Shown in pieces: positions 3,999 to 19,369 of a stretch of DNA of 64,000 nucleotides. The translations under genes were made by a program, and so were the position numbers. Source of the stretch: Gallionellaceae bacterium (GTDB lineage Bacteria; Pseudomonadota; Gammaproteobacteria; Burkholderiales; Gallionellaceae); assembly GCA_038925245.1 (NCBI GenBank), contig JBCKTZ010000002.1, positions 11,568-75,567 on the forward strand, read 5' to 3'. Position 1 is the first letter of the stretch. Every line of letters begins with the position of its first letter. The notes below the pieces were generated by a model. That model had not been told where the DNA came from and ran no database searches. It worked only from the letters and a program-made list of their open reading frames with translations.

Positions 3999-4027
3999 CG
4001 CTCGGGAGAGGGAAACGAGCTTGCTCG

Positions 4028-4474
4028 TTAGTCATAATGTGTGATCAATTCAAGCGAATAGCGTTTGCCCGCCAAATAGTCCTCAATACAGCGCAAAATC
4101 AGCGGGCTGCGGTGGTGCTGCACTGACCCACGTATTTCATTCAGTGTCATCCACACTGTACGCACGATGCCTTCATCCAGTTCTTGCCCTGCATGGTGCG
4201 CGAGAATACGGCCGCTGTAAGCAAAGCGCAGATAGGTGGTGTCAGATTTTTCAGCATGCCAGCGATACACACCAACCAGATGTTGCGGCTCGAAATCGTA
4301 GGCGGACTCTTCGCGTGCCTCACGCACCACGGCATGCAGCAGGGATTCGTTTGCTTCCAGATGTCCGGCAGGTTGGTTGAGCTTCAGCCCTTGCGAGGTG
4401 TGTTCTTCAACCAGCAGAAATTTGCCGTCCTGTTCAATGATTGCGGCAACGGTGACATTGGGTTTCCAGATCAT
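4028..4474 (-). CDS. NUDIX hydrolase
   Basis: Nudix box GHLEANESLLHAVVREAREESAY (GX5EX7REUXEEXGU pattern). Confidence 0.8.
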   Translation of the reverse strand: MIWKPNVTVAAIIEQDGKFLLVEEHTSQGLKLNQPAGHLEANESLLHAVVREAREESAYDFEPQHLVGVYRWHAEKSDTTYLRFAYSGRILAHHAGQELDEGIVRTVWMTLNEIRGSVQHHRSPLILRCIEDYLAGKRYSLELITHYD

Positions 4475-4492
4475 ACTGTTTATACCAAGCGC

Positions 4493-4903
4493 TTAATTAC
4501 GAACCACCGGCAATCCTTCGCTGACCCAGCGGGTGATGCCGTTTTTAACGTTGTATACTTTTGTGTAGCCTAGTTGCTCGATCAGTGCGCGCGACAGCGT
4601 GTCAGTACGACTACCGGTTCGGCAGATCAAAATAACGGGATCATTTTTGCCCACAGCTTGTGTGAATTTGCTGACAAACTCCGGATTGACGCGACCTTTG
4701 TCATCTACAAAGGTCAGCTTGTTGCTGCCTTCAACCACACCGGTCTGCTTCCATTCCTCTTCGCGGCGAATGTCGTATACAGGAATACCTTGCGCTTGCA
4801 GGGACTTCAGTTGTTGATTGTCGATGTTGGTATAGGGTGTTGCTCCGCAAGCAGAAAGCGGTAGTAGTAGGAGCAGTATGAGCGCGAAATTCTGGAAGTT
4901 CAT
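4493..4903 (-). CDS. exported rhodanese-domain sulfurtransferase
   Basis: N-terminal signal peptide and the active-site loop CRTGSRT typical of single-domain rhodaneses. Confidence 0.8.
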   Translation of the reverse strand: MNFQNFALILLLLLPLSACGATPYTNIDNQQLKSLQAQGIPVYDIRREEEWKQTGVVEGSNKLTFVDDKGRVNPEFVSKFTQAVGKNDPVILICRTGSRTDTLSRALIEQLGYTKVYNVKNGITRWVSEGLPVVRN

Positions 4904-5034
4904 GGTATGGATTTTAACTTGGGTGAGTTGCGTATGGCGGGAAAACGCAATTTTAACATCAAGCCGTGCAAATGGTTATTTGCGACTGCGGCTGCAACTG
5001 AAGTTAATCTCCTAGACTTTCAGAAAATAAAAAA

Positions 5035-5056
5035 GGCAGGGAAGCCCCTGCTTTTT
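5035..5056 (-). terminator. rho-independent terminator (bidirectional hairpin GCAGGG-AAGC-CCCTGC flanked by A- and T-runs)
   Basis: Seen directly in the sequence. It lies ~110 nt beyond the tRNA-Leu 3' remnant at 5168-5189, as expected for the tRNA's original terminator. Confidence 0.55.
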
Positions 5057-5167
5057 TATAAACGTGCGGCGAATTACTTAGCTACTGCATCACCTTTCAC
5101 TATCCGTGTCAGGTTCAATAACGCTAATTTATTCTGTTGCGTTGACAATCAGCGTAACTTTATGTGT

Positions 5168-5189
5168 TGGTGCGGGAGGGGGAATCGAA
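5168..5189. repeat. distal att direct repeat (displaced 3' fragment of tRNA-Leu)
   Basis: TGGTGC-GGGAGGGGGAATCGAA matches 18433-18455 (TGGTGCCGGGAGGGGGAATCGAA) apart from a 1-nt deletion. Confidence 0.75.
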
Positions 5190-5355
5190 AAACAAGCTGT
5201 ACGCCTTATATATACTAGGTTTGCAGATTGTCATTTCTAATGTTACTGTAAAAGTTACTGCATTCCCGTCCCGCTACTACTTCAGTTTTAATCGTGATGA
5301 TGAAGTTTAACAGGTAAGCATGGCGGAAGTGCATTTTATGTTTTGTCTGCACTCA

Positions 5356-5432
5356 GGGTGGTGTATGGAAATAAAAAAATCCAGTGCAGGGGTTTTTGTC
5401 CTGTACGAATTTTTTATTTCCATACACCACCC
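5356..5432. repeat. perfect 23-bp inverted repeat (large hairpin) near the island end
   Basis: GGGTGGTGTATGGAAATAAAAAA (5356-5378) is the exact reverse complement of 5410-5432. The loop is 31 nt. Confidence 0.8.
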
Positions 5433-6278
5433 GCAAACGATAACGGTGGCGTGATGGTGTGGGCGCTTTTGTTTCATGCCTGCACCATGACGTTGCCTCG
5501 ATAAACAACATACACTCCCGCTATGAATAATGCGCGCAGCGACTACACCTCTCCTTATAAAACCAACCCGGCGAAGCCGCCATATTAAGCATTGCCTCGC
5601 CTTGCCCGCCCCTGCTCTTTCCAGCGAGCGATGCAGGACACAGTACTGTGAACTGTTTGCGTGGATGCGGGTTTACCAAGGGCAAGGGGTGGCAGTGCGG
5701 ACGGGTGCGGTCATGCCTTTGTTTCATTTGACCGCTAGGGGGCTGGGGGGCGTTAGAGGGAAAGCGCCCCCGAACAAACCGCGAAGCGACAACACCGCAG
5801 AACAAACACCGCGCAGCGACAAGAGGAAGAGAAGATATAGGTCGGCACGACCATGCAGCAAAAAGCGAAGGGGCGATGATTTACCAGCCCTGTTTTGCTG
5901 CCCTTCACTATGGTGATAGACGTTGACCTGGTGGCGGTATTTACCCGAAGGGCGCAAGACATAACGGTCTCTTGTACGAACCTAGAGGGCGGGCGGCTTT
6001 ATGCCCGGCGCTTGCGCTTTGTACAAGACGCCGTTATGTTAAAACACCGCCACACTAACAACCGGCGCAGCCGACCACACATTACCTCGAACCGTTGCAG
6101 GGGCGCTGAACTGTCAGGCTACCAGTGCACGAGCCGCCTACGAACCGCAAGCACCTGGCGAGGCTTTTTTCGCGAGGTGCGCAGTGGTGAAGCGGCGGCG
6201 GGAACGGAGCAACACACTGTCCACGGAGTAGAAGCCAGGGGCGGTAAGCGTGGCGGATAATCAAAAAATGCGATGGGG

Positions 6279-6533
6279 TTATTTGCGCTTTTTGAGGTCG
6301 CTTAATTGCTTGCCGATTTGCTTATTCACTGCGGATGCCTCTTTAATATTGTCGCGATCCTCTTCGCTGAGCGGTTCATGCAAACCATGCTTGGCCATTT
6401 TGAGTTGCAGGAGACAAGTCTTCAGCATAGTGACAAGAATTTTTCTTCGCGCAGTCCAGCTCACACTTCGAGGCCGTTCGACCAACTCACTTTGCATCTG
6501 AATCAAATTGGCTAGTAAAAATTTTGTACTCAT
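6279..6533 (-). CDS. hypothetical small helical protein (84 aa) with a basic C-terminus
   Basis: This is the only plausible ORF in the interval and I recognise no motif. The coding call is uncertain. Confidence 0.4.
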   Translation of the reverse strand: MSTKFLLANLIQMQSELVERPRSVSWTARRKILVTMLKTCLLQLKMAKHGLHEPLSEEDRDNIKEASAVNKQIGKQLSDLKKRK

Positions 6534-6776
6534 ACAACCCCCTTAATTATTGATGCGTGGGAAAACTCACCTATCCAATATCTTTATTTCATTACCAAGC
6601 CAGTCTATAGGAATAGAACATGCAATGCATCCATCGTGGTCGATCATCGGCTGCAAGTCTGCATACCCCCCCCCCCACAGGCGGACAGCGTATAGAGGGC
6701 CCGGCCTTCATTTATCTTAGCCCCGCATTCCTCAGGCAGTTTTTAAGTGCTGTAAACCCTTATATACCCCACCCTG

Positions 6777-7037
6777 TTACAGCCTTGCCTCAGCCATCAA
6801 GTCCATCAGGCTTACATCAAGGGCTTTCGCAATTTTCAGCAATGTGAGCACGGCCACGTTGTTATCACCACGTTCCACACGTCCTATGTAGCTGCGGTCA
6901 ATCTCTGCCATCAGCGCAAGTTTTTCTTGTGATATGCCTTTCTGTTTACGAATGCAGCGGATCGCTTCGCCCAAGGCGATGAGCGCGGGATGTTGACGAT
7001 GTTGGGAGAGGTTAGGCATCATTCCGTTATACTGCAT
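6777..7037 (-). CDS. XRE-family helix-turn-helix transcriptional regulator
   Basis: Classic HTH_3 core: LGEAIRCIRKQKGISQEKLALMAEIDRSYIGRVERG. Confidence 0.85.
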   Translation of the reverse strand: MQYNGMMPNLSQHRQHPALIALGEAIRCIRKQKGISQEKLALMAEIDRSYIGRVERGDNNVAVLTLLKIAKALDVSLMDLMAEARL

Positions 7038-7045
7038 AAGAATCC

Positions 7046-7061
7046 AAGGTACATGTACCTT
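7046..7061. promoter_or_regulatory. perfect 16-bp palindrome AAGGTACATGTACCTT, candidate operator in the XRE/nuclease divergent promoter
   Basis: Seen directly. It lies 9 nt upstream of the XRE start codon, between the divergent genes. Confidence 0.55.
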
Positions 7062-7122
7062 TTTTAATTGTTACTTGCTCGACCCTGAGTATTGACTGAG
7101 GCGGCTCTGATTTGAATGAACA

Positions 7123-7551
7123 ATGATTACCGCCCTGATGTGCCTAGTTATCGCTATAGCAGACGGTGACACTCTCACAGTACTATGCAATGACAATCAG
7201 CAAATAAAAATCCGACTGGCTGAAATTGACGCACCAGAAAAAACCCAGCCATTCGGCAATCGCTCCAAACAATCCCTTGCGGATTTGTGCTATCAAAAGC
7301 AGGCGGAAATTAAAGTTCAAACAAAAGACCGATACGGGCGAACTGTTGCGCGAGTAATATGTGACGGCACTGATGCTAATGTGGAACAGGTTAAGCGTGG
7401 CATGGCGTGGGTGTACGAAAAGTATGCGAAGGATAGAAGCCTGTATGCCTTACAGGATGAAGCGAGAGCATTAAGGGTGGGGTTATGGGCTGATAGTGAT
7501 CCTATTCAGCCTTGGGAGTATCGTAAGAGCAAGAGGGTGAATTCAGGATGA
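7123..7551 (+). CDS. thermonuclease-family (SNase / micrococcal nuclease-like) protein
   Basis: DGDTL...IRLAEIDAPE...GRTVA... motifs of the staphylococcal nuclease fold. An in-frame stop sits 6 nt upstream, so the N-terminus is short. Confidence 0.85.
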   Translation: MITALMCLVIAIADGDTLTVLCNDNQQIKIRLAEIDAPEKTQPFGNRSKQSLADLCYQKQAEIKVQTKDRYGRTVARVICDGTDANVEQVKRGMAWVYEKYAKDRSLYALQDEARALRVGLWADSDPIQPWEYRKSKRVNSG

Positions 7552-7751
7552 TTCGGACTGGATGGCACATAGGTAAATGGTAGCGCCCCCTTTATTCTGC
7601 CCTACCATGTTGCATTGACATGCGCTACGTTCAAGGCGAGTCTGCGGACAGACAGCAAGACAAACGAAAAAAATAGTGTATCCGGGGTTCTCTGTTGAAA
7701 ATACACCGCCCAACACATCTTAATACCACTCACCCTAGGGAGAATTCATTC

Positions 7752-10082
7752 ATGAAAAGTTTGATCTGTTCTTTGTTGCTGTCGCTGGCACTCACCGTCG
7801 GTGCGTCGGTGCAAGCGCAGACGTTTGAGCAGTCGGTGGCGGCCAATGATCGCAAGGATTTCCGCACGGCGTTTGCAGGGTTTAAAAAGCTGGCCGAGAA
7901 GGGGAGTGCCGGGGCGCAGAGGAGCCTAGGTGAGATGTATCACTACGGCGAAGGCGTTCCCAAGGACTACCAGCAGGCCTTGGCGTGGTACCGCAAGGCC
8001 GCCGACCAGGGGGATGCCATGGCGTGGTTCCGCCTGGGTGAGATGTATAACAACGGCCAAGGCGTGCCCAAGGACGATCAGCAAGCCGTGGTGTGGTTCC
8101 GCAAAGCAGCCAAGCAGGGGAATGCTCGTGCGCAGATCAGCCTGGGTGAGATGTATCGCTACGGCCAAGGCGTGCCCAAGGACGATCAGCAAGCTGCAGC
8201 GTGGTACAGGAAAGCCGCCGAGCAGGGGGATGAGGGCGCACAGTACAACCTTGGCAATATGTATGCCGACGGTCGAGGAGTGCCCAAGGACGAGCAGCAA
8301 GCAGTGGCGTGGTACCGCAAAGCCGCCGAGCAAGGGGATGGCATGGCGCAGGACAAACTGGGCAATATGTATGCCGACGGTCGAGGAGTGCCCAAGGACG
8401 AGCAGCAAGCAGTGGCGTGGTACCGCAAAGCCGCTGAAAATGAGAGCCACTTTATGTGGCAGTTTCGCTTTCGTCGAGGAGAACCCAAGAACGAGCAGCA
8501 GAAGATGGCGTGGTATCGCATAGACGCCGAGCAGGGAAATGCCAGTGCGCAGGCCATGCTGGGCATGATGTATGATCACGGACGAGGCGTGCCACAGGAC
8601 TACCAGCAGGCGGAGGTGTGGTACCGCAAAGCAGCCGAGCAAGGGAATGCCGTGGCGCAGTTCGGCCTAGGAAAGATGTATGAACACGGCCTAGGCGTAC
8701 CCAAGGACGAGCAGCAAGCCATGGTGTGGTACAGGAAAGCCGCAGAGCAGGGCTATGTCGTGGCACAGTACAACCTAGGCCAGATGTATTTCATGGTCAA
8801 AGGCGAGGCGCGCGATCTCAAGCAAGCCGCAGCGTGGTACCGCAAGGCCGCCGAGCAGGAGCTTGCTAACGCGCAGAGCATGCTAGGCTATATGTATGAA
8901 CACGGCCTAGGCGTACCCAAGGACGAGCAGCAAGCTGTGGTGTGGTATAGGAAAGCCGCCGAGCAGGGGTTTGCCAGTGCGCAGCGCAAGCTCGGCCTGA
9001 TGTATCGCATAGGCCAAGGCGTGACACTCGACCCCAGGCAAGCCTTTTACTGGTGGACCAAAGCTGCCGATCAGGGCTATGCCGATGCTCAGTTCGACCT
9101 GGGCTATATGTATGAATTCGGCCAAGGCGTGCCAAAGGACGTACAGCAGGCGGTGGCGTGGTACCGCAAAGCCGCCGAGCAGGGGCATGCCATGGCGCAG
9201 ACAACCATGGGCGTGATGTATCGCAAGGGCCAAGGCGTACCCAAGGATGAACAATCGGCTTATTTATGGTGGCTGCTGGCCAGTGCACAGGGGAATCAAC
9301 ATGCAGCAAATTTCCGTGATTCGGTGGAGTCCATCTTGTCTCCCGAGCAACGCGCCGCCGCGCAAGCCGCCGCGCGCAACTGGCAGCCCAAAACCGCCGC
9401 GCAATCCAGCAATGACCCCGGTGGAAGTTCCGCTGACTCCGGTGGCTCGAACTCCGCCCCTAGCCACGCGAAAGCCCAAGCCGACAGTACCGGCAGTGGC
9501 TTTCGCGTGGCGCGCGACGCCATCGTCACCAACCATCATGTGATTGACGGCTGCAGCCGCTTGCACGTCAACGGCACCGCCGCCCAGGTGCGCGGCAGCG
9601 ATGCGCGTAGTGACCTAGCCTTACTGGGTGTTAATCTGCCAGGCCCCAGCGTCAGCTTGCGGGCGCAGCGCGCGGCGGTGGGCGAACCGGTGGCAGTAGC
9701 GGGGTACCCGCTGCGTGGCCTACTCTCGGGTTTCAACATGACCACCGGCAACCTCAGTAGCCTGTCTGGCCTGGGGGGCGACACACGCTATCTACAGATC
9801 ACCGCGCCGGTGCAGCCCGGCAACAGCGGCGGCCCCATGCTGGACTCGGCGGGCAACCTGATGGGTGTGGTGGTGTCCAAGCTGGACGCGATCAAGCTGG
9901 CCAAGATCACCGGCGACATTCCGCAAAACGTCAACTTCGCGATTAACGCCAATGTGCTGCGCTCGTTCCTAGATGCCAACAGCGTGGACTACAACAGCGC
10001 CAGCTCCGACAAGCCACTACCGCCCACGGCGATTGCAGAAAAGGCCAAGGGCTTTACTGTGTTGGTGGAGTGCTGGAAGTGA
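7752..10082 (+). CDS. exported Sel1-repeat (SLR) protein fused to a C-terminal trypsin-like (S1C-type) serine protease domain
   Basis: Sec signal peptide (...ASVQA/QT). I count 13 units of 36 aa with a GxMYxxGxGVxxD...AxxWYRKAAEQG core. The C-terminal domain has TNHHV (His), SDLALL (Asp) and GNSGGP (Ser). The start is set at ATG 7752. Confidence 0.85.
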   Translation: MKSLICSLLLSLALTVGASVQAQTFEQSVAANDRKDFRTAFAGFKKLAEKGSAGAQRSLGEMYHYGEGVPKDYQQALAWYRKAADQGDAMAWFRLGEMYNNGQGVPKDDQQAVVWFRKAAKQGNARAQISLGEMYRYGQGVPKDDQQAAAWYRKAAEQGDEGAQYNLGNMYADGRGVPKDEQQAVAWYRKAAEQGDGMAQDKLGNMYADGRGVPKDEQQAVAWYRKAAENESHFMWQFRFRRGEPKNEQQKMAWYRIDAEQGNASAQAMLGMMYDHGRGVPQDYQQAEVWYRKAAEQGNAVAQFGLGKMYEHGLGVPKDEQQAMVWYRKAAEQGYVVAQYNLGQMYFMVKGEARDLKQAAAWYRKAAEQELANAQSMLGYMYEHGLGVPKDEQQAVVWYRKAAEQGFASAQRKLGLMYRIGQGVTLDPRQAFYWWTKAADQGYADAQFDLGYMYEFGQGVPKDVQQAVAWYRKAAEQGHAMAQTTMGVMYRKGQGVPKDEQSAYLWWLLASAQGNQHAANFRDSVESILSPEQRAAAQAAARNWQPKTAAQSSNDPGGSSADSGGSNSAPSHAKAQADSTGSGFRVARDAIVTNHHVIDGCSRLHVNGTAAQVRGSDARSDLALLGVNLPGPSVSLRAQRAAVGEPVAVAGYPLRGLLSGFNMTTGNLSSLSGLGGDTRYLQITAPVQPGNSGGPMLDSAGNLMGVVVSKLDAIKLAKITGDIPQNVNFAINANVLRSFLDANSVDYNSASSDKPLPPTAIAEKAKGFTVLVECWK

Positions 10083-10202
10083 GCTTGCCGACGCGACCAT
10101 ACACGTGATGGTGTCAAATGTTGAAGATAATGGAATCGTCCCCTTTGTCGCGAACTTACTAGCCAATCTGAAGCAGAACTAAGCACCCCGAAAGAGAAAA
10201 CT

Positions 10203-12248
10203 ATGACACGATCAATTCAAATCTTTTTGGCTGCCTTTGCCATATTGTTGGTGGGTTGCGATAACAGCACATCGACCACGAGCGCCGAAAAATCCCAAGC
10301 CACCAATGCAGCTAACACGAGCAACAAGATCGATCCCAAGAACTACGACGGGCCACTTTTCCCGGCCATAAAGGATGGAAAATATGGCTTTATTGATACC
10401 AAGGGAAACTTTTTAATTCCTCCAACCTTCACGTCAGCCGAAAACTTTAGCGAGGGAATGGCTGCGGTATATGTGGGAGGACGATCATTTATTTACGGAG
10501 AATCAGGTCAACACATAAGCCTAGAAGGCGGGAAATGGGGTTACATTGACCGTACTGGAGAAATTAAAATCCCCCCACAGTTTGGAGAGGCCGCACAATT
10601 CAATGAAGGCCTTGCGTTCGTAGCGGGCGACATAGGCCATAAAGAGGCTTGGGGGTTTATTGACGCACAGGGTTTGTACAAAATCAATCCGAAATATGGG
10701 CCTGAGCAATCTTCCTTTAAAAACGGAATCGCCTTTGTTAGGTTGGCTGATAGTGATAAAGTAACCCTTGAAAATGGTCACTGGTTTGACGTATCAGGTA
10801 AGGAAATTAGTATTGCTGAAGCAGCAGAAAAAATGGCCAAGCACTCAGCGCTTAACAAAAAGCACTGGATTGACGCTTCAGGCAAAGTAATTGACGGCAT
10901 CAAGGCGTTAAGCATAATCAAATTGAATCGCATAGCTTTTGAACAAAAAAATACTCTCGAGATAGATGGGGGAGCTTATTACAACGTTGGTCAAGAGGGC
11001 TTGAAAGACAGCAAGGGGCGCGTTGTTGTCAAAGCAAAGTTTTATTCTATTGGAGATTTTTATAACAAATTCGAAGGGAAGGTATATGAATTCACAGATG
11101 CTTGCATAGTATCTACTTGGATAACATACCCGAGGCGCAATTATGCGATGATGAAAACAGTAAAATGTGGATTAATCGACATGAATGGGGATTTTGTTCT
11201 TGCTCCCGATTTTGATCGAGTAAGACTAATATCTGAAGATTTAGCCGTGTTCACCATAGGGTGTGATCGCCAGTGGGAGTGTGATGCCGCGAAAGAAGGC
11301 ATTTTCAGTATCAAAGAACAAAAAATTATTGTAAATCCGCAATTTAAGTGGATTGGAAAATTACGTGATGGGCTGATTGCAGTTGATCTCGACGGCAAGT
11401 TGGGGTTCATCGATGTCAGCGGTAAGTATGTCATTCAACCTCAATTTACTTCTGCATTACTCTTTAAAGATGGATTGGCTCGAGTTGGCTTAGCTGACTA
11501 TATCAACAAGACCGGCGAGTATGTGTACAAGGGTTCAATAGGCAATCTGCAACCAAAGCCCAAGGAAACCACTGCTTCACCTGGCGCTGGCAACCCTGTA
11601 TCGGCGAGTGGATCACTGGCTAAAAAAGGTACCGGAACGGTTTTTATTATCAGCAAGGAAGGCCACGCGATAACCAACCACCACGTTGTCGGTGGCTGTA
11701 GCGAACTTCGTGTCGAAGGCCGTGAAGGGGTGGCTAAACTCGTTACCGCTGACGAGGTCAATGATCTGGCGCTGATTAAGGTTCCTGGAAATATATCAGC
11801 CACGGCAACCATCGCCGCTGATCCGGTAAAGCTGCGGCAGGGCGATGACATCATCGTATTCGGCTTTCCGCTCAACGCTGTGCTGTCGTCGGGTGGGAAC
11901 CTGACGCCAGGCGTGGTCAGCGCGCTCACCGGCCTCGGCAACAACACCAACCAGATTCAGATTACCGCGCCGATCCAGCCCGGTTCCAGCGGCAGCCCGG
12001 TGCTGAACAAGAAGGGTGAAGTCGTCGGCGTGGTGTCGATGAAACTCGATGATATAAAGATGGCGAAGGCGACAGGGCAGTTCGGTCAGAACGTCAACTT
12101 CGCCGTGAGCGGCCAGACCCTGAAATCCTTCGTCGATACGCACAAGGTCAGGTATCGCAGCGGCGGGATGCTGTCGTTCGAGAAGAGCACCGCCGACCTC
12201 GCAGACGAGGCGCGGAAATGGACTCTGGTGGTGGAGTGCTGGAAGTAA
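10203..12248 (+). CDS. lipoprotein with WG-containing beta-repeats fused to a C-terminal trypsin-like serine protease domain
   Basis: Lipobox LLVGC. GKYGFID / GKWGYID / EAWGFID / KLGFID repeats recur (WG/KWG repeat type). The C-terminal domain has TNHHV, NDLALI and GSSGSP, and the C-terminal tail matches the 7752-10082 protein. Confidence 0.8.
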   Translation: MTRSIQIFLAAFAILLVGCDNSTSTTSAEKSQATNAANTSNKIDPKNYDGPLFPAIKDGKYGFIDTKGNFLIPPTFTSAENFSEGMAAVYVGGRSFIYGESGQHISLEGGKWGYIDRTGEIKIPPQFGEAAQFNEGLAFVAGDIGHKEAWGFIDAQGLYKINPKYGPEQSSFKNGIAFVRLADSDKVTLENGHWFDVSGKEISIAEAAEKMAKHSALNKKHWIDASGKVIDGIKALSIIKLNRIAFEQKNTLEIDGGAYYNVGQEGLKDSKGRVVVKAKFYSIGDFYNKFEGKVYEFTDACIVSTWITYPRRNYAMMKTVKCGLIDMNGDFVLAPDFDRVRLISEDLAVFTIGCDRQWECDAAKEGIFSIKEQKIIVNPQFKWIGKLRDGLIAVDLDGKLGFIDVSGKYVIQPQFTSALLFKDGLARVGLADYINKTGEYVYKGSIGNLQPKPKETTASPGAGNPVSASGSLAKKGTGTVFIISKEGHAITNHHVVGGCSELRVEGREGVAKLVTADEVNDLALIKVPGNISATATIAADPVKLRQGDDIIVFGFPLNAVLSSGGNLTPGVVSALTGLGNNTNQIQITAPIQPGSSGSPVLNKKGEVVGVVSMKLDDIKMAKATGQFGQNVNFAVSGQTLKSFVDTHKVRYRSGGMLSFEKSTADLADEARKWTLVVECWK

Positions 12249-12264
12249 GGGCGAGTGAACAACT

Positions 12265-12576
12265 TCACTTCGGGGCATGCCAGGTCGCTTTAAAGCCCCC
12301 GTCCCGCCATCCCCTTAATCGGGTGTATCCCAGCTTGCGCAAAATATCTCCAAGCTCTCCTGCTTGAGCTTGGCGGCCTTGTCGACCTTTCAGTGACACA
12401 CGGAAGAACTCCAACGACTGGGGCTGAGTGCGCTGTTCGGGGGGCAGTCCCGCGATAAATTTCTGTAACCGCTGGATCAAGGGGGCGAGGGGCCTTTCAG
12501 TTTCGGGCGCAGGGGTGGGTTTGATATGGCTGGCAGCCTTTATTTTTTCCATCCACGTTATGATATGGGCATCCAC
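12265..12576 (-). CDS. hypothetical protein (103 aa)
   Basis: ORF only. It is convergent with the protease gene and I recognise no motif. Confidence 0.45.
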   Translation of the reverse strand: MDAHIITWMEKIKAASHIKPTPAPETERPLAPLIQRLQKFIAGLPPEQRTQPQSLEFFRVSLKGRQGRQAQAGELGDILRKLGYTRLRGWRDGGFKATWHAPK

Positions 12577-12796
12577 AAATAAAATCCTTTTTTGGTGGTG
12601 GTTGTGATTTGCTATGTCTGCATTAAGTGTTGCAGAGCAAGCATTAAAGTAATATTATTGTTATAAATCAATAAGTTGCATGTTATTGGTTAAGCCGAAT
12701 TCTATCGTTTATATTCAACGAGACGCAAGAACTGCAACAGCTAATTTAGACATAGCCTTGTGATTCGCCTCAGATTCTCACTTGGCGGCCATGAAT

Positions 12797-12900
12797 TGCG
12801 TGATATGCGTGATATACCCCCCCTAAAACATAAACTTTTCTATAACTCTCTCGCATGGAAAAGTTTTGAGAAATAGGTCAATAATCACGCATATCACGCA
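12797..12900. promoter_or_regulatory. inverted pair of double GCGTGATA boxes next to an AT-rich tract; candidate island replication origin
   Basis: TGCGTGATATGCGTGAT (from 12797) is the perfect reverse complement of ATCACGCATATCACGCA (12884-12900). The site is immediately downstream of the primase gene and next to very AT-rich DNA (12600-12780). Confidence 0.45.
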
Positions 12901-12907
12901 CCCCTCG

Positions 12908-15271
12908 CTAGGCCGCTGCCATACCGTGCATGTTCAAGGCAAGCCCGCCAATATTCCGCTTGTCAGGCAGTATGGGGTAGCCGCGTTCCCCAAGTCGCCT
13001 GGTCAATCTCCTTTGCGCCAAAGGGTGATGCCCGTTATCCAGCGCCCATTTACGGTATGCCCGGTAGAGTAGGTCTTTGCGGGCTTTTTTATCCTGCCCT
13101 CTATCGCAGTGCTCAGCTAACCATTCGCCGATAGTGTCTTGCTCATCACGGTAAGCCGCCGTTGCGGCTTCAATCTTTTTGGGTACGGATAGGCCACCTT
13201 GCTGCCACTTCCGCAGTCCAGCCAGCGACCAATTAAGAATACCAGCCCCTTCATTTTTCAGTTTTTCCAGCAGTTTCGGATCACGCATTTTTTCCTCGAT
13301 AGTCACGTCAAATTGAACCAAACAAACACGCCGCCACATGCCATGGCTGCTGTCTCCAATTTCAGGCTTGTGGTTGCCTACGATTGCAAGCTTGTGTGTT
13401 GGTTGAAATGTGATGTCGGCCTTGCCGTATGGCACCCGGCCAGCCAGTGTGTCGCCGCCGGTCATTTCCTTGACCTTGGCCTCGGCCAGCTTCCGGCCTT
13501 CTTCTGTTTCGTTAGCATAGACAAAGCGCCTGCCTTTAAGGGAAACAATGTCAGGGCTTGCAGCTTGCGGACTCCGCTGGTGTTGCATCAACATTTCCGT
13601 GGCGATTTTTTTGGCGTAGTCACCAAGTAGCCATGCGAGTAATTCAACGAACACGCTTTTACCGTTCGCGCCGCTACCGTGCAGGAATACAAATCTCTGT
13701 TCTTGCACGCTACCCGTTAAGCAATACCCCACCCATCGCTGGAGAAATTTCTGCATTTCAGGATCGGGTTGAACATCGGCGAGGAACTGTTCCCATTGCG
13801 GACAGGTTGCCCCTTGGTCATAAATAACATTGCAACGTTTGGTCACTAGCAGGCTGGGCGACACGGGCAATAGCTTCCCGCCACGAAGATCAAGAACCCC
13901 ATTTGCCACCCCAAGCTGCATGGAGTCAGCGTCAAAGTCATTCAGGCTTCTAGTCATTCCACTTTCTGATGCGGCCATGCTGATCATCGCATTAATTTTT
14001 GGCTCTGTGCTGGACTGATCCACGTGCTTCATAAAACGCTTAACTTTTTGATCATCAGGATTCAGCTTCCACTGTTCCGCAGCGTTGGCGCGCATTGCCG
14101 CCACAACTTCCTTGCCCGCACGATCAGCCTCTCCCGGTTGTGCATGTACCCATCCGGCTGCATCGCTGAATTGCAGCACGTCGCCCGTTTCGTGCACGAA
14201 CAGCAGCTTGTCCCGGAACATGTCCGCAAAGGCTTTTCCGTTCATAATATCTCCGGCAGTGTCACCGTGCGAGGCTTCAATCGAGACTGTATTTCCTGTA
14301 TCTACCCAGCCTGCCTCTTTCGCGTGGTGAACCAGCGTGCCGAAGCCGATTCCGCCATCTGGATTAAATGAGTTCCAGTCCTTAGTAAAGGCAACTGCGT
14401 CATATTTGTCCGGCGCGGTTGCTGACCACTCAAGGGCCAGTACCTGAGCACACCGCCAACCTGTACTCGCTATCGCCCATATTATATTGAGCCAGCGCGT
14501 CCGATCACAGTCAGCAGGAATAGTTGCCAACATTGATTTCACACGCTCGATTTCTTCCGGCGTTTCCGGTGGGGGCGGTGATTTCAAATCGGCGGTAAGG
14601 GCATGGTTTAGAGCTAGGCTGTCAGTAGAGTACTCTGCCTTTTGCACCTGATCGAGAAGCAAACCACTAGACATCTCATCCGGGGTATACACTATCGCAT
14701 TCTGATTTGCCAAAACGATGCGCACTAGAAACGCCCCGCACTCATTAACGTAGATACCCCCCTTTTTCTTCTGGTGATAGAACCCTGGCAGTCGTAGCAC
14801 GCGGGGGAGATCAATTACATTCTTATCGGTAGCAAATTTCTTGGCAAGCGCAACTTGAACCTGTCTGAATTCGTTTAAGTTACAGACTGCCTCCCAATAA
14901 ACATGGTAATTGCCTGGGCTGGATTCAATCAGCATTAGCGGAAGAACAGACCCGTCGCGAGCCGCCATAATTATTGGCTTGAGTGGGGCGCCGTCCGTGT
15001 CAGCAAAGTAACAGCGTACCTTGATAATGTTAGCCGCTTTGCGCCCATGTAAATCGGTCTGATTGATCGTTACGAATATTCCCGCGCCTTGCGCATTCAG
15101 GCCGGATAGCGCTTGACTGTGCTGCACCAGCGTGCCGTGAAAAATCCGCACTAACTGCGGGCGACCTTCATCGCTGTCGTCGAAGGTTTGAAAAGTGAAC
15201 TGATCGGTCTGTGGGTCGAGAAGATGCAGGAAACGCGCAGCCTCCGTGAGGTCGATTTGATTGGCTATCAT
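12908..15271 (-). CDS. P4-family primase/helicase (N-terminal primase-polymerase region plus C-terminal SF3 NTPase)
   Basis: Walker A FLHGSGANGKS. The C-terminal half resembles the phage/plasmid primase P4-family domain (VGYCLTG..., D5-type NTPase). Confidence 0.88.
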   Translation of the reverse strand: MIANQIDLTEAARFLHLLDPQTDQFTFQTFDDSDEGRPQLVRIFHGTLVQHSQALSGLNAQGAGIFVTINQTDLHGRKAANIIKVRCYFADTDGAPLKPIIMAARDGSVLPLMLIESSPGNYHVYWEAVCNLNEFRQVQVALAKKFATDKNVIDLPRVLRLPGFYHQKKKGGIYVNECGAFLVRIVLANQNAIVYTPDEMSSGLLLDQVQKAEYSTDSLALNHALTADLKSPPPPETPEEIERVKSMLATIPADCDRTRWLNIIWAIASTGWRCAQVLALEWSATAPDKYDAVAFTKDWNSFNPDGGIGFGTLVHHAKEAGWVDTGNTVSIEASHGDTAGDIMNGKAFADMFRDKLLFVHETGDVLQFSDAAGWVHAQPGEADRAGKEVVAAMRANAAEQWKLNPDDQKVKRFMKHVDQSSTEPKINAMISMAASESGMTRSLNDFDADSMQLGVANGVLDLRGGKLLPVSPSLLVTKRCNVIYDQGATCPQWEQFLADVQPDPEMQKFLQRWVGYCLTGSVQEQRFVFLHGSGANGKSVFVELLAWLLGDYAKKIATEMLMQHQRSPQAASPDIVSLKGRRFVYANETEEGRKLAEAKVKEMTGGDTLAGRVPYGKADITFQPTHKLAIVGNHKPEIGDSSHGMWRRVCLVQFDVTIEEKMRDPKLLEKLKNEGAGILNWSLAGLRKWQQGGLSVPKKIEAATAAYRDEQDTIGEWLAEHCDRGQDKKARKDLLYRAYRKWALDNGHHPLAQRRLTRRLGERGYPILPDKRNIGGLALNMHGMAAA

Positions 15272-15612
15272 GGCTTACCCCCTGCGCGTGCCAATCCATA
15301 GTTGTAAAACCCTGCGTGGCCTTTCGGGACAATTGTTTGTGGAAGAGCACCGCCATTCATCATGGCAACACTGCGTGCATAGGCTTCGAGAACATCCACC
15401 GGAAGGGCGGACATAAGCGAGACAAATAAAATGGATTCAGCCAAAACATCTATCGACTCCCCCCCGGCCATAACGCGACGGATGGCGGCGGTAACGACCA
15501 TCACACTTAGCTTTCCGGATGGTGTAGCCAGATAGTCCATGTAGGGAGCCATTTCAGGGCAGCTTTTTGGCATATCCCGGTGGTATGAAAAACAGCGTGT
15601 GTATTTTTTCAT
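15268..15612 (-). CDS. hypothetical protein (114 aa)
   Basis: The ORF overlaps the primase start by 4 nt, an operon-style junction. Confidence 0.5.
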   Translation of the reverse strand: MKKYTRCFSYHRDMPKSCPEMAPYMDYLATPSGKLSVMVVTAAIRRVMAGGESIDVLAESILFVSLMSALPVDVLEAYARSVAMMNGGALPQTIVPKGHAGFYNYGLARAGGKP

Positions 15613-15890
15613 TGCTGCCCCCGATCTATATTCTGACTATGGTCGTGAGGTAACTGTGTGGGTTGAATAGCTGGCTGCGAGCTGATAACTTGTGCGCCCT
15701 GGCCATTTCGATTTTTTTCCCAGGCCAAGATTTCATCTTGGGAAAATAAGCCATTTACTTGCAATGGAAAAATTGGATCATATTTCTTTGCGTCTTTAGC
15801 AAGAAGTTGGTTCATCTCGCTAAAGTTTATGCCAAGAGCGACAGCGACTTCGATGTGTTTGAGGTGACGTGTATTAGGGGCTGCGCTCAT
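15609..15890 (-). CDS. hypothetical protein (93 aa)
   Basis: 4-nt overlap with the downstream ORF. I recognise no motif. Confidence 0.5.
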   Translation of the reverse strand: MSAAPNTRHLKHIEVAVALGINFSEMNQLLAKDAKKYDPIFPLQVNGLFSQDEILAWEKNRNGQGAQVISSQPAIQPTQLPHDHSQNIDRGQQ

Positions 15891-15892
15891 AA

Positions 15893-16117
15893 TTATTTTC
15901 CCCCTTCATCATTAGCAACACGCTCAATTAGTGCACGTATATCATCCACTTTCCAAGCAGTTGTTCGATTTGATAAGTGCACGCTGGCTGGGTATTTACC
16001 CGATGCCACCCCTGCCCACCACGATGATCGACCAACTGGGAAGACTGCTAATATTTGAGGTAGTCGAACGAAGCCTGTTGCTGGTAAAGAATTTGATAGC
16101 ATATTGACGGTCTCCAT
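15893..16117 (-). CDS. AlpA-family (phage_AlpA / excisionase-like) DNA-binding protein
   Basis: FVRLPQILAVFPVGRSSWWAGVASGKYP...W...DI pattern typical of AlpA/Xis-type winged HTH proteins on P4-integrase islands. Confidence 0.8.
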   Translation of the reverse strand: METVNMLSNSLPATGFVRLPQILAVFPVGRSSWWAGVASGKYPASVHLSNRTTAWKVDDIRALIERVANDEGGK

Positions 16118-16300
16118 AATAGCTATTAAGACTTGATTGCCTTAATGCTGCGGAGGTTACACGCCGGATATTTTTTACGACTGGCATTGCTTGCCGCATA
16201 CGGCAAGCCTTCTAGCGCTTACACAGGGGGGAGGGGTGACTACAGAACTTTGACTTTAAAAATATACGGCAAGGTGATACGGCAAGCGCAGGGCTACGTA

Positions 16301-16972
16301 TTATTTACCCTCTAAATTATCGGCAGTAGTTTGGCATACGTCACAATCGTGGTATTTCTTCCGCAGGATGTTTGCGGCCTGCTTTTCGTTAATAAATTTC
16401 TTATCCAATAAGTACATTGCTATTTGGTCAGGATACCATCTAGATTCTTTCTTTCCTCGCCCTACTGATGCGCGACAATCGAGCAACCCTGGATAACGTT
16501 TAGCTTCTCTAAAGCGCTTCTTAAAAGAATCTTCGTCGAGTTTATTTTGCAGCATAAAATCAGAAATTATTTTTGTTGATGATACTGCCTCAGATTTTCT
16601 AACCGGTGTGCTCGGCTTGTTCAATTTACACAATTCAGCAAGTGCAATCCGAGGAATATATAACTTATCACAACCAATTTCTTTTATGTGCTTTAGCGCG
16701 TCAGTACCTTGGAATAGCATCGTAGCGTCAGCCCCACCATGAGTGTCAATTGTACATAAAGGCAACGTACCATCAGCACACCACGCCAATAACAGCAATA
16801 CAGAGTTTTCCTTTGTAGCAACATAAGGAAAGTATCTGCGAATATCTTCAACTGTTAGGTTCGCAGCTGCCAATACACCATCAAAAACTTCTGCACCCCA
16901 AGTGTGAGCGCCCTGATTTAGATATAAATAAGTTTCAGCTTCGTCGATTGACAACAGTGTAGACGTGCCCAT
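16301..16972 (-). CDS. hypothetical protein (223 aa), AT-rich, translationally coupled to the integrase
   Basis: Its ATG (16972-16970) overlaps the integrase TGA in an ATGA junction. I recognise no motif. Confidence 0.55.
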   Translation of the reverse strand: MGTSTLLSIDEAETYLYLNQGAHTWGAEVFDGVLAAANLTVEDIRRYFPYVATKENSVLLLLAWCADGTLPLCTIDTHGGADATMLFQGTDALKHIKEIGCDKLYIPRIALAELCKLNKPSTPVRKSEAVSSTKIISDFMLQNKLDEDSFKKRFREAKRYPGLLDCRASVGRGKKESRWYPDQIAMYLLDKKFINEKQAANILRKKYHDCDVCQTTADNLEGK

Positions 16973-18240
16973 CACGCAACTTTTCCAAGCAGCGGTATCA
17001 CGTCCGCCCCAGCCTTGAGCTTGTCCAGATAATCCGCCCATTGCTGCATCATCTTGCGACGTTCAACAAGGTGAGCAGTGCGATTGTATGCGCGCCCGTT
17101 GGGGTCTTTAACCGCGTGTGCTAGTTGGTGTTCGATAAAGTCAGTACGCACACCCAGCTCTTCATCCAGAATCGTGCGAGCCATTGCCCGGAAGCCGTGG
17201 CCGCTCATTTCATCTTTTGCAAAACCCATGCGCCGCAGTGCAGCCAGAATGGCGTTATCGCTCATCGGCCTGCCATTGGTGCGCGCCCCTGGAAACACAT
17301 AGCGCCCGTCGCCAGTGAGTGCGTGAAGTTCGCGCAGAATTTCCACCGCTTGCGAGGATAGAGGGACAAGGTGCGGTTCGCGCATTTTCATGCGTTCGGC
17401 GGGTATATTCCATTCAGCTTTATCGAGGTCTATTTCCGCCCATTCCGCCTTGCGTAGCTCACCAGGACGCACGAATACCATAGGGGCGATGCGCAGGGCG
17501 CACTTGGTCACGAACTGGCCTTGATAGCCGTCTATGGCGCGCAGGAGTGAGCCAACGGCCTTGGATTCGATAATGGCGGCATGGTGTTTCACTTTTTTGC
17601 TTGGCATGTATTCGCATAAACGCGCGGTAGGATCGCCTTGCGAATAACCCTTCTTGGCGGCGTATCCGAATATCCGGCCACAGTTCCACAGGACGCGCCG
17701 TGCAATATCTAATGCGCCCCTGTCCACAATGCGCTGGACGGTTGCGTCAATTTCTGGCGTGGTGATTTTATTTATAGGGTGTCTGCCCAGCCAAGGAAAA
17801 ACATCCTTTTCCATCCAGCCGATGATTTTTCCCGTTTGCTTTTCGGATCGCCTGTCCGTTGGGACAGTCGCCCATTCACGCGCGACATCTTCAAAAGAAC
17901 CGGCAGCAGGCAACCCTTCATCTGTTCGCCGCTCTGCTTCCAGCGCCTCAGCTTGTTGCGCCTTGCTTGCCTTGCGTACATCGCTAGGATCAGTGCCCGC
18001 TGCCACCAACTCCCGCGCTGTATCCGCCTTGTTGCGCGCCGCCTTTAGTCCGGTGTCTGGATATACGCCAATGGAAAGAGTTTTGCGCTTACCACCAGTG
18101 CTGTAATCCAAGCGCCACCAGCGCGCGCCGTTCGGCTTGACCAGCAGATAAAGCCCGTCCCCGTCATTCAGGCGTTGTGTCGCGTCCGTGGGCTTGGTGT
18201 TGCGGATAGTCACATCCGTCTTGATTAGGTGTCGCACCAT
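16972..18240 (-). CDS. int: tyrosine recombinase, P4-type integrase
   Basis: N-terminal DUF4102-like arm-binding region (LNDGDGLYLLVKPNGARWWRLDY). The C-terminal catalytic region has ...HGFRAMARTIL... and ...HLVERRKMMQQWADYLD. It is adjacent to the tRNA 3' end. Confidence 0.92.
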   Translation of the reverse strand: MVRHLIKTDVTIRNTKPTDATQRLNDGDGLYLLVKPNGARWWRLDYSTGGKRKTLSIGVYPDTGLKAARNKADTARELVAAGTDPSDVRKASKAQQAEALEAERRTDEGLPAAGSFEDVAREWATVPTDRRSEKQTGKIIGWMEKDVFPWLGRHPINKITTPEIDATVQRIVDRGALDIARRVLWNCGRIFGYAAKKGYSQGDPTARLCEYMPSKKVKHHAAIIESKAVGSLLRAIDGYQGQFVTKCALRIAPMVFVRPGELRKAEWAEIDLDKAEWNIPAERMKMREPHLVPLSSQAVEILRELHALTGDGRYVFPGARTNGRPMSDNAILAALRRMGFAKDEMSGHGFRAMARTILDEELGVRTDFIEHQLAHAVKDPNGRAYNRTAHLVERRKMMQQWADYLDKLKAGADVIPLLGKVA

Positions 18241-18351
18241 TGCAGTAACTCCAGTAGAAAATGCAGTAACTTTTCAGAGAAAAACAGTAACAGGGGGTGT
18301 TACTGCATAAGTTACTGCAAATTTAGCCGGATTGCAATAGATGTTACTGCA
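18241..18351. promoter_or_regulatory. cluster of six GTTACTGCA / TGCAGTAAC boxes; candidate integrase/Xis arm-type binding sites
   Basis: Boxes at 18241, 18262 and 18284 in one orientation, and at 18299, 18311 and 18343 in the other. Two more lie at the far end of the island (5242-5262). Confidence 0.55.
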
Positions 18352-18432
18352 TTTCGCTGGACAAGAAAAAACCCGCAATGCTATAAGACATGCGGGTTTA
18401 AGGACTTCTTTGGACTTCTTCAAACTATAAAA

Positions 18433-18519
18433 TGGTGCCGGGAGGGGGAATCGAACCCCCACATCCTTGCGAATACTGGATTTTGAGTCCAGCGCGTCTA
18501 CCAATTCCGCCATCCCGGC
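18433..18519 (-). tRNA. tRNA-Leu (anticodon CAA), type II with a long variable arm
   Basis: The reverse complement folds as a cloverleaf: acceptor GCCGGGA/TCCCGGC, anticodon loop CTCAAAA, T-arm GGGGGTTCGATTCCCCC, encoded CCA. Confidence 0.9.
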
Positions 18520-18765
18520 AAGGTCCGGGTGAGATGCCCGGATCAAGAAGGTGCGAATTATCCATGAAATGCCACGCTTCATCAAGCTACAATGCACGTT
18601 TACTGCGCAAAGCGGAAAATTTCGTGCAGGGGAGTGGGAGCAAGTATCTTTCATTACGCTGGGATACCGCTTCAACGTGGTGGATATACTGCTTAACAAC
18701 TTTCACTTACCCAAGTCTAGCGATGGCGATGCTGATAGCACGGGCTACTTAATCCGGAGGAAAAT

Positions 18766-19185
18766 ATGGCGATTTACATATATTGGTTTCTGTTAGCTTT
18801 AGTGCTGTTTGGCGTTGAGATGGCAACGGGTACGTTTTACCTGTTGGTCATTTCGCTCGCGCTGGCTGTTGGCGGCGTTGCGGCATTGCTCGGATTGGGA
18901 GTGCCTGCGCAATTTGTACTTGCCGCACTGATAGGTATTATTGGAATAGTCATGTTGCGCGGATGGAAGGGTAGCCGCGCCAGCGACGCATCCAACCTAA
19001 GCCTAGATGTGGGGCAGCATGTCAAGGTATTAACCTGGCGGGATGATGGTACTGCGCGTGTGCTTTACCGAGGTGCTGCATGGGATGCGGAGCTAGATAT
19101 TTCTGATGCTGCGCATGAAGGGGTGTTTTATATCAAAGAAATGCGCGGTTCGATTCTTGTGCTGACGCATAATAAACCGGTCTGA
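18766..19185 (+). CDS. NfeD-family membrane protein
   Basis: N-terminal TM helices plus a C-terminal soluble OB-like domain, sitting upstream of an SPFH gene (the classic nfeD-SPFH pair). Confidence 0.85.
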   Translation: MAIYIYWFLLALVLFGVEMATGTFYLLVISLALAVGGVAALLGLGVPAQFVLAALIGIIGIVMLRGWKGSRASDASNLSLDVGQHVKVLTWRDDGTARVLYRGAAWDAELDISDAAHEGVFYIKEMRGSILVLTHNKPV

Positions 19186-19190
19186 ATTTT

Positions 19191-19332
19191 AGGGCACCTC
19201 TAAATATCCAAACTTCGTCGCGATACTGTGTTGCTCAGAAATTTTTATCGCTTACATATCAAATATATGCTGCGCTCAAAAATTTACTCGCGCCTTGCCC
19301 CACTTAGAATTTTGAATTTTTAGAGGCACCCT
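19191..19332. mobile_element. MITE-like element, family A, copy 1
   Basis: Terminal inverted repeats AGGGCACCTCTAAA... / ...TTTAGAGGCACCCT. About 85% identical to the copy at 63395-63533. It splits the nfeD-SPFH pair. Confidence 0.65.
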
Positions 19333-19369
19333 TTAGTTAAACCAACTTCAACATTACACGGGAGGCAAT

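Follow-up and report, generated by a model that had tools for sequence, protein, structure and literature searches.

The integrative island and its insertion site

The stretch of DNA analysed here (the window; 64,000 nucleotides of Gallionellaceae bacterium GCA_038925245.1, contig JBCKTZ010000002.1, positions 11,568 to 75,567) contains a single tRNA gene, tRNA-Leu(CAA), recognised on the minus strand with both ARAGORN and Rfam. Between this gene and a displaced copy of its 3' end lies an island that encodes on the minus strand, in order from the tRNA, a P4-type integrase, a protein of 223-246 amino acids, an AlpA-type protein, two small open reading frames (ORFs), a primase-helicase and a 103-amino acid ORF. 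The far half of the island holds accessory genes and a 0.9-kb conserved non-coding element (Table 1). The genes for a rhodanese, a nudix protein and MnmA flank the island on one side and those for NfeD, SPFH and Tgt on the other. We interpret the locus, with a probability of about 0.8, as an intact integrative element of 13,266 bp, belonging to the integrase/AlpA/primase-helicase class and inserted site-specifically in the 3' end of a Gallionellaceae tRNA-Leu(CAA) gene. As such the island is of a known and moderately ordinary kind, and the novelty of the locus is its 0.9-kb structured element.

Table 1. Features of the tRNA-Leu(CAA) island, with positions in the window unless another locus is named
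Feature	Position	Strand	Basis and remarks
Original intrinsic terminator of tRNA-Leu	5036-5051	-	Terminator scan; T-run after hairpin; 115 nt beyond the attachment (att) remnant
attL, displaced copy of the tRNA-Leu 3' end	5168-5189	-	22/23 bases; flank 5100-5167 aligns 3' of the tRNA in L001 and L002
Two GTTACTGYA repeats, candidate left-arm arm-type integrase sites	5242-5262	+	Copy distribution; arm-binding domain of the integrase
Conserved non-coding structured element (modules A, M1, B1, B2)	5352-6235	+ (weakly favoured)	74-82% nucleotide identity to relatives; covariation; no Rfam match
Module A	5352-5547		26-bp hairpin at its start (5356-5432); inner stem flanked by an A-run and a T-run
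Module M1	5548-5847		
Module B1	5848-6083		
Module B2	6084-6235		
84-amino acid ORF	6279-6533	-	ORF list
XRE/Cro-type helix-turn-helix (HTH) regulator	6777-7037	-	HTH_3 E 2e-15; resembles restriction-modification 'control proteins' in PADLOC
Staphylococcal-type nuclease (SNase), hydrophobic N-terminus	7123-7551	+	PF00565 E 6e-26
Secreted protease: signal peptide, 12 Sel1 repeats, C-terminal S1-C trypsin-like domain	7695-10082	+	Sel1 E 1e-140, Trypsin_2 E 6e-21; probable ATG 7752
Lipoprotein protease: LVGC lipobox, WG beta-repeats, paralogous S1-C trypsin-like domain	10203-12248	+	WG_beta_rep E 3e-48, Trypsin_2 E 7e-25
103-amino acid ORF downstream of the primase gene	12265-12576	-	36% identical ORF in L087
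Four TGCGTGATA repeats, two of them direct and two inverted; candidate origin of replication or operator	12797-12900		AT-rich stretch 12620-12720 beside; gap after primase gene
P4/D5-family primase-helicase, 787 amino acids	12908-15271	-	RepB_primase, PriCT_2, D5_N, DUF5906, Pox_D5; PHROG DNA primase E 3e-114
Two small ORFs (114 and 93 amino acids) between alpA and primase gene	15268-15890	-	ORF list
AlpA-type excisionase/regulator	15893-16117	-	PF05930 24.9 bits, cut-off 21; PHROG excisionase
Protein without family match	16301-17041	-	Probable start 16972 overlaps the integrase stop codon (223 amino acids; range 223-246)
P4-type tyrosine integrase	16972-18240	-	Arm-DNA-bind_3, Phage_int_M, Phage_integrase; PRK09692 E 3e-67
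Five GTTACTGCA repeats, candidate right-arm arm-type sites	18241-18351		Copy distribution
Island-supplied hairpin and T-run, now after tRNA-Leu	~18366-18398	-	Read directly from the sequence
tRNA-Leu(CAA), attR core in its last 23 nt (18433-18455)	18433-18519	-	ARAGORN, Rfam
Closest integrase relatives (L155, L156, L157, L158, L161)	~10001-11260 in each		Next to tRNA-Leu(TAA), not CAA

The 3' end of tRNA-Leu(CAA), which reads TGGTGCCGGGAGGGGGAATCGAA on the plus strand, is repeated at the far end of the island as TGGTGC-GGGAGGGGGAATCGAA, the two copies sharing 22 of 23 bases, with one G deleted from the far copy and an exact core of 17 nt. Relatives were gathered via the flanking rhodanese gene. 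The closest three (NCJL01000006, DATKTO010000007 and JBCKTV010000009, here L001, L002 and L003) are different species rather than sister strains, with 77-82% amino acid identity in the flanking rhodanese protein. All three have an uninterrupted site, where tRNA-Leu(CAA) is followed by a homologue of window positions 5100-5167 and then, 185-630 bp from the tRNA, by the rhodanese gene. When window positions 4400-5167 were joined to 18433-19300 and used as a BLAST query, alignments crossed the reconstructed junction in both L002 and L001; that in L002 spans query positions 700-938, with the junction at 868. The multiple alignment further shows that positions 5100-5167 are homologous to the sequence immediately 3' of the tRNA in the relatives. 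The initial annotation, which was made from the sequence alone, had placed the island in tRNA-Leu(CAA) with exact ends and had proposed a comparison of the joined flanks with related genomes. The 22/23 repeat and the empty site in three relatives bear out this placement, and the homology of positions 5100-5167 to the tRNA 3' flank in L001 and L002 sets the repeat at the true boundary of the insertion.

The hairpin that lies beyond the att remnant is read as the old terminator of the tRNA gene, since a homologous hairpin follows the tRNA by ~45 nt in the empty site of L003, in agreement with the earlier suggestion that a terminator had been left stranded there. Insertion has rebuilt the 3' end of the tRNA, so that the original copy, now displaced, and the old terminator beyond it lie at the far end. 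A hairpin and T-run supplied by the island (AACCCGCA...TGCGGGTT TTTTCTTG) now follow the tRNA and form a candidate replacement terminator; this hairpin, read from the sequence, was unflagged by the terminator scan, the limit of which its loop exceeds. The island has the direct repeats of a tRNA 3' end at both ends and the integrase gene at one end that define tRNA-associated islands, with the integrase gene starting 192 nt from the tRNA. The possibility that the tRNA-Leu gene is an integration hot spot was rejected: the tRNA-rhodanese intervals of 3.3 kb (L006) and 7.6 kb (L004) in two more distant relatives contain ordinary chromosomal genes, coding for an OmpA-like protein, a sucrose-phosphate synthase and phosphatase and an amylase, and no mobile elements.

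Integration and replication module

The domain matches confirm the initial description of the tRNA-proximal module as a P4-type integrase, an AlpA-like protein and a P4-family primase-helicase. The DUF5906 match of the latter scores 30.7 bits (cut-off 27.6), while its N-terminus resembles RepB' of RSF1010 (PF16793, E 6e-12), and relatives that are 45-70% identical are encoded in L081-L087. Neither the protein encoded next to the integrase nor the 114- and 93-amino acid ORFs match any family in Pfam, PADLOC or PHROGs; the 114-amino acid ORF is 37% identical to the ORF in the same position in L081. Likewise, a cluster of 100-amino acid ORFs occupies the position equivalent to that of the 103-amino acid ORF in L081, L087 and L099.

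Seven copies of the 9-mer GTTACTGYA are present in the 64 kb, compared to 0.73 expected by chance, and all of them lie within 200 bp of the island ends. Given this distribution and the arm-binding domain of the integrase, the copies are best read as putative arm-type sites and, as they are found at both ends, both arms of attP look intact. The TGCGTGATA repeats downstream of the primase gene represent a candidate replication origin or operator.

Structure of the conserved non-coding element

On the weakly favoured plus strand, the 0.9-kb element would be orientated opposite to the integrase-primase genes, and 163 nt would separate its 5' end from the att remnant. Its nucleotide identity to the copies in L081 and L087, both of which are primase-related islands, is 75-76%, compared to 69-71% for the primase gene. 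Between the window and its relatives, substitutions in the element are spread evenly over the three codon positions with no 3-nt periodicity, and the indels, with lengths of 1, 1, 29, 1, 7, 3, 1, 2, 2, 6 and 6 nt, are frame-breaking, both of which argue that the element is non-coding. The best ORF within it shows 51% amino acid identity, against 76% at the nucleotide level, and the arginine-rich ORFs of 128 and 121 amino acids in the region 5530-6260 were ruled out as genes by the same periodicity and indel test.

Covariation points to a conserved secondary structure. For module B1, an alignment of 36 sequences with less than 97% mutual identity gave a consensus of 57 pairs, in which 98.4% of the cells are paired, compared to 41-47% in slid controls. 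Double changes occur in 11 of these pairs, compared to 3.4 +/- 1.1 in shuffled alignments, none of 500 of which reached 11. In four loci the apex of the long hairpin has been swapped for an unrelated yet self-complementary sequence, while in module B2 compensatory changes are observed in nine of 21 pairs. The copy in the window has a minimum free energy of -378.5 kcal/mol on the plus strand (z = -8.2) and -359.6 kcal/mol on the minus strand (z = -4.8), the B1 covariance model detects it with 240 bits on the plus strand, and the consensus fold energies for the plus and minus strands are -59 vs -57, -31 vs -24 and -199 vs -171 kcal/mol. The predicted fold energies thus modestly favour the plus strand. 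A strand assignment from wobble pairs (37 G:U vs 8 A:C) was discarded as biased, the structure having been predicted on the plus strand. When the window and six relatives were searched with Rfam 15 (4227 models, E up to 1), no match to the element was found, the only matches being to tRNA and chance miRNA hairpins.

Distribution and modular variation of the element

The element was searched for with one exact 21-mer, GCAGCAAAAAGCGAAGGGGCG, so that its diversity is under-sampled. Among the GTDB representative genomes 19 stretches with this 21-mer were found, in Gallionellaceae, Gallionella, Sulfuricella, Nitrotoga, Hydrogenophilales, Comamonadaceae and metagenome-assembled genomes (MAGs) of other Nitrosomonadales and Burkholderiales. 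The 19 include one chance 22-nt match in a Rhodothermales MAG, one possibly misbinned Kiritimatiellales MAG and two repeat retrievals of the L081 and L087 contigs. A further 41 metagenome contigs contain the 21-mer, one of them duplicating the Kiritimatiellales MAG contig, while it is absent from IMG/VR. The resulting family comprises more than 50 loci (the window, L081, L087, L089, L092-L099, L102-L106, L109-L149 and L172) with 74-82% nucleotide identity, from Gallionellaceae, Sulfuricella, Nitrotoga and groundwater and freshwater metagenomes, mostly inside tRNA-integrated islands. The full ~880-nt alignment extends over seven genome loci and a dozen more metagenome contigs, the remaining loci being partial. 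Full-length copies other than that of the window are ~96% identical to one another, which implies that modules A and M1 are represented by few independent lineages.

The modules vary in their combination, with copies that lack M1, copies that consist of B1 and B2 alone and copies with a tandem double B2 or with an extra inverted B2 0.5-4 kb away. The motif CGCG[CA]AGCGAC is found at the module borders, both in the window (5534-5543, 5781-5790 and 5811-5820) and in the relatives, and the variants without M1 (5548-5847) are joined exactly at this motif. A -10-like box (GATAAT, TAAAAT or TACAAT) often occurs 5-20 nt upstream of the border motif, in several contexts. The hairpin with which module A opens looks, from its flanking A-run and T-run, like a bidirectional terminator.

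In L115, L116, L122, L125, L126, L141, L143 and L148 (4593-4721 vs 5973-6098 in the last), an additional inverted copy of the ~150-nt B2 module lies apart from the main element, at a distance of 0.5-4 kb, and the copy pairs bracket genes such as SNase, XRE or HU. Such a pair could, from its arrangement, be a substrate for recombination or inversion. A second copy of the element or of B2 in the window was sought with BLAST, nhmmer and the covariance model, and none was found.

Genomic context of the element

Three islands that host the element are fully delimited. Besides that in the window, the island in the Gallionella MAG CAYHEM010000021 (L172; 9752-19660) comprises tRNA-Val(GAC), the integrase and primase genes, a Sel1 protein gene, an XRE regulator gene, the element and the att remnant. 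The element has the same relative position and opposite strand as in the window. The remnant in L172, CAATCGTGC-TACCA, likewise has a 1-nt deletion relative to the tRNA end and a stranded terminator beyond it. The third island (L138; 2284-12552) is a complete 10.2-kb island with exact 45-nt att repeats of tRNA-Arg(ACG). It encodes an integrase, an HTH_17 protein, a DUF3631 protein, which by its position only is a candidate replication protein, and two small ORFs, followed by the element, a DNA methyltransferase with a 421-amino acid partner and an SNase. A further island, in L081, contains integrase, alpA and primase genes, restriction-like cargo and the element; its att repeats were not found.

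Elsewhere the element is found no more than ~250 nt from the tRNA-Arg(ACG) 3' end, close to tRNA-Met or tRNA-Arg(CCT), or directly adjoining an integrase gene at its 3' end. Among the 35 loci of at least 5 kb, SNase genes are the commonest neighbours (six loci), followed by XerC/D-like recombinases and XRE regulators (five each), HU-like proteins and type III restriction-modification genes (four each) and P4-type integrases and D5 primases (three each). The element accompanies unrelated integrases and unrelated neighbouring genes.

Accessory genes

The far half of the island encodes, in addition to an 84-amino acid ORF with no match in family searches (PADLOC and PHROGs included), an XRE-type regulator, an SNase and two S1-C trypsin-like proteases. 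A copy of the regulator that is 80% identical adjoins the non-coding element in L103. The His, Asp and Ser motifs, as read from the translations, are kept in both proteases, which also share the C-terminus VECWK (...V/LVVECWK), the last 49 nt of their genes (10035-10083 and 12201-12249) being 73% identical. The protease domain has seemingly undergone duplication, with its copies later joined to different repeat domains. This S1-C domain has more than 6500 homologues with interchangeable N-terminal domains, including Sel1, MORN, peptidoglycan-binding, ankyrin and adhesin E domains. Close homologues of the proteases (88-92%) are encoded by single genes outside islands, beside toxin-antitoxin genes, which rules out that the proteases are specific to the island; by this comparison they are common flexible-genome genes for exported proteases.

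The period of the Sel1 array (7864-9336) is strictly 108 nt, apart from a single step of 201 nt near 8188-8389, where the repeat is degenerate in translation (...ENESHFMWQFRFRRGEPKNEQQK...). This irregularity suggests a local deletion or a repaired frameshift within the array.

No complete known defence system was found in the island with PADLOC, and cargo of this type was rejected on the basis of its matches, which are partial (the trypsin domain to an RT-protease entry, the HTH to a control protein and the SNase to candidate entries). In related islands the same slot holds different genes: L081 has genes for a DUF2357 protein and a PD-(D/E)XK nuclease there, L138 one for a methyltransferase and L172 one for a Sel1 protein. 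This is in keeping with the view of the initial annotation that a cargo hot spot lies between the replication module and the far end. Its broader statement, that everything from 5190 to about 12600 is cargo of no assigned function, is partly wrong. The candidate arm sites lie at 5190-5270 and the conserved, family-specific non-coding element lies next to them, the two large ORFs can be recognised as secreted serine proteases, and XRE, SNase and Sel1 genes recur beside the element elsewhere.

Relationship to known satellites and mobile elements

SatelliteFinder recognises seven core components in P4-like satellites and five in phage-inducible chromosomal islands (PICIs); a PICI of Type A or B has at least four of the five, while a P4-like element of Type C needs five of the seven (PMC10085698). 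Sets of integrase, AlpA and primase alone are designated 'Type C' in the case of PICIs and may comprise defective PICIs, other mobile elements or chance aggregates, and they were excluded by the authors of that scheme (PMC10085698). When scored with Pfam and PHROGs, the window island has three of the seven P4-like components, the integrase, AlpA and alpha primase, without psu, delta, sid and epsilon. It has three of the five PICI components, corresponding to 'Type C', with no gene for packaging or capsid redirection. No ORF of at least 50 amino acids matches capsid, terminase, portal, tail, holin, lysin, psu, sid or delta families in Pfam or PHROGs, with partial domains only in PADLOC, in line with the previously noted lack of virion and lysis genes. 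The description of the island as satellite- or PICI-like consequently stands for its layout (integrase, AlpA and primase, no virion genes), not for membership of either family.

P4-like satellites and CP4-57-type islands of Enterobacterales share with the window island an arm-binding P4-type integrase beside a tRNA gene, AlpA, an alpha-like primase-helicase and a cargo hot spot (PMC10085698, PMC8628076). They differ in the four P4-like components that the island does not have. P4 itself uses the tRNA-Leu gene leuX. An E. coli leuX-type island was rejected as an explanation, the island with its flanks (window positions 3500-20500) having no megablast match in 5,426 E. coli genomes. The Gram-negative PICIs of the EcCICFT073 type resemble the island in the order of their integrase, alpA and primase-replicase genes and in their size of 10-15 kb (PMC6092414), but the window island lacks terS, ppi and capsid-morphogenesis genes.

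The PICMIs (phage-inducible chromosomal minimalist islands) of Vibrionaceae have int, alpA and primase as mandatory genes, integration adjacent to fis as a hallmark and a size of ~6 kb (PMC10803314). The window island contains co-located int, alpA and primase genes as in the PICMI model, which calls for a DUF3987 or DUF5906 primase, here DUF5906. It shares with PICMIs the restriction to this core with no capsid-remodelling or packaging genes, the variable accessory region that separates the primase gene from the far att site and the short direct repeats at its ends (PMC10803314). It is, however, located in a betaproteobacterial tRNA-Leu(CAA) gene rather than next to fis, is 13.3 kb long and encodes a primase of the D5 type that includes PriCT_2 and RepB-like domains. 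Under the scheme of PMC10484663, the island, which has no relaxase-type Pfam match, is an 'integrative element' with a replication module rather than an integrative and mobilizable element. Two distant partial relatives of the primase, and no close one, were found in IMG/VR, and its relatives in a set of 50,697 phage records are all remote. The island may function in the manner of a minimal satellite. The satellite label is a reasonable analogy, and the island is not assignable to any satellite family.

Large structured bacterial RNAs tied to mobile elements and tRNA genes include ROOL, GOLLD and HEARO. The non-coding element resembles these in its length of several hundred nucleotides, its many covarying helices, its location on mobile elements and its frequent proximity to tRNA genes. 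It differs in having no sequence or structure match in Rfam 15, in occurring in other taxa (Gallionellaceae, Nitrosomonadales and other Burkholderiales-type betaproteobacteria) and in being a candidate RNA with a weakly favoured strand.

Proposed life cycle and competing explanations

The integrase and AlpA would excise the island as a circle, which the primase-helicase may replicate, possibly starting at the TGCGTGATA repeats a short way downstream of the primase-helicase gene. The island would then spread by borrowing the transfer machinery of another element, for which phage particles are the likeliest single vehicle, as for minimal satellites, though at somewhat under even odds. Conjugation is considerably less probable, and the balance falls to other vehicles or to none. 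The accessory genes are predicted to export two proteases and the SNase nuclease, and to supply the XRE regulator. Several observations weigh against this account of an intact, mobile island. Every step beyond integration is deduced rather than observed, the 1-nt deletion in the att remnant could lower the efficiency of excision, and neither a helper phage, a cos or pac site, a relaxase nor an oriT was found. Furthermore, the genes of the closest integrases in GTDB (81-92% amino acid identity) all immediately follow tRNA-Leu(TAA) genes, and the primase of the window accompanies none of them. An exact search for the integrase of the window in public assemblies gave no record. This indicates that the integrase module has been shuffled among islands, making the island by this comparison a mosaic rather than a stable lineage. 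The module seems to move both among islands that are not otherwise related and from one tRNA-Leu isoacceptor to another.

For the 0.9-kb element a large structured RNA is the likeliest reading, at slightly better than even odds; a signal in single-stranded DNA is a distinctly weaker candidate, and conservation without function is weaker still. The strand of such an RNA is only weakly indicated, with G:T pairs numbering 28 and A:C pairs 18 in a strand-neutral count over the helices common to both strands. No promoter-terminator pair clearly brackets the element, the sole clear terminator-like hairpin being at its left edge, on both strands. We tentatively propose, at a little below even odds for the proposal as a whole, that the copies form a hitherto undescribed family of structured RNAs that are large (0.4-1.0 kb), modular and located at the ends of tRNA-integrated islands of iron- and sulfur-oxidising and nitrifying betaproteobacteria. 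In these RNAs the units A, M1, B1 and B2, separated by the CGCGCAGCGACC motif, would be gained, lost and duplicated, and the RNAs would act in the island life cycle, possible roles including immunity, copy control and anti-phage activity. A DNA signal recognised by the host or a helper is also a possible role for the element.

The island may be a true phage satellite of the P4-like, PICI or PICMI type, induced by a helper, excised through AlpA, amplified by the primase and packaged in helper capsids, possibly as concatemers as in PICMIs. This reading is plausible, but the odds are against it. Its int, alpA and primase genes represent both the mandatory PICMI core (PMC10803314) and the core shared by P4 and PICIs (PMC10085698), the DUF5906 match belongs to one of the primase families of the PICMI model, and the island is small, with intact ends and no virion genes, while the equivalent slot of related islands holds restriction-like cargo. 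On the other side, none of psu, sid, delta, epsilon, terS, ppi or a capsid-morphogenesis gene is present. The position away from fis, a length of 13 kb that is twice that of PICMIs, the presence in IMG/VR of two distant partial primase relatives and of no copy of the element, and a cargo of exported hydrolases with no recognisable defence system also speak against it.

It is less likely that the island is a mobilisable integrative element moved by conjugation, with the 0.9-kb element as a DNA-level signal, either an oriT or a set of single-strand initiation (ssi) sites on the transferred strand. Nearly all of its helices are Watson-Crick paired on both strands, so that either DNA strand could fold, and the element is located at island ends. 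The RepB'-like N-terminus of the primase also fits such a signal. RepB' of RSF1010 primes at hairpin ssi sites, and homologues of SNase, the commonest neighbour of the element, are common on conjugative plasmids. Conjugative transfer, however, is opposed by the lack of a relaxase, a coupling protein or an oriT-binding protein. The same element, with 75-95% identity, is found beside the D5 primase here and the DUF3631 protein in L138, and it is missing, or present as one weak 12-bit match, in the primase-related islands L082 and L083. These observations, together with the unrelated integrases and neighbours of the element, make it unlikely that it is an origin read by the island's own initiator. 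Invariant wobble pairs that are possible on the plus strand only, and the better plus-strand energies, also lean towards an RNA.

It is improbable that the island is a fixed, decaying and immobile remnant in which the conservation of the element reflects the shared ancestry of recently spread islands. The deletion in the remnant and the lack of transfer genes are consistent with decay, and the ~96% identity among full-length copies besides that in the window shows that part of the conservation stems from recent spread. Against this, all ORFs of the integrase/alpA/primase module are full length and the arm repeats are intact on both sides. The element in the window is 24% diverged, with its helices kept by compensatory changes, and its nucleotide identity exceeds that of the adjacent primase gene. 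An intact integrative element thus remains the preferred interpretation of the island.

Implications

The locus extends the integrase/AlpA/primase layout of 'minimal satellites' to the Gallionellaceae and their relatives, for which, to our knowledge, no satellite or helper phage has been described, and the exact att sites of the island are usable for excision tests. Structured RNAs of more than ~400 nt are rare in bacteria, and several ride mobile elements next to tRNA genes with no assigned function. With more than 50 copies, covariation, swappable modules and three delimited host islands, the element described here is directly testable. Should the element turn out to be a DNA signal, it would represent a cis-acting site shared by islands with unrelated integrases and replicases, and would point to the machinery that moves them.

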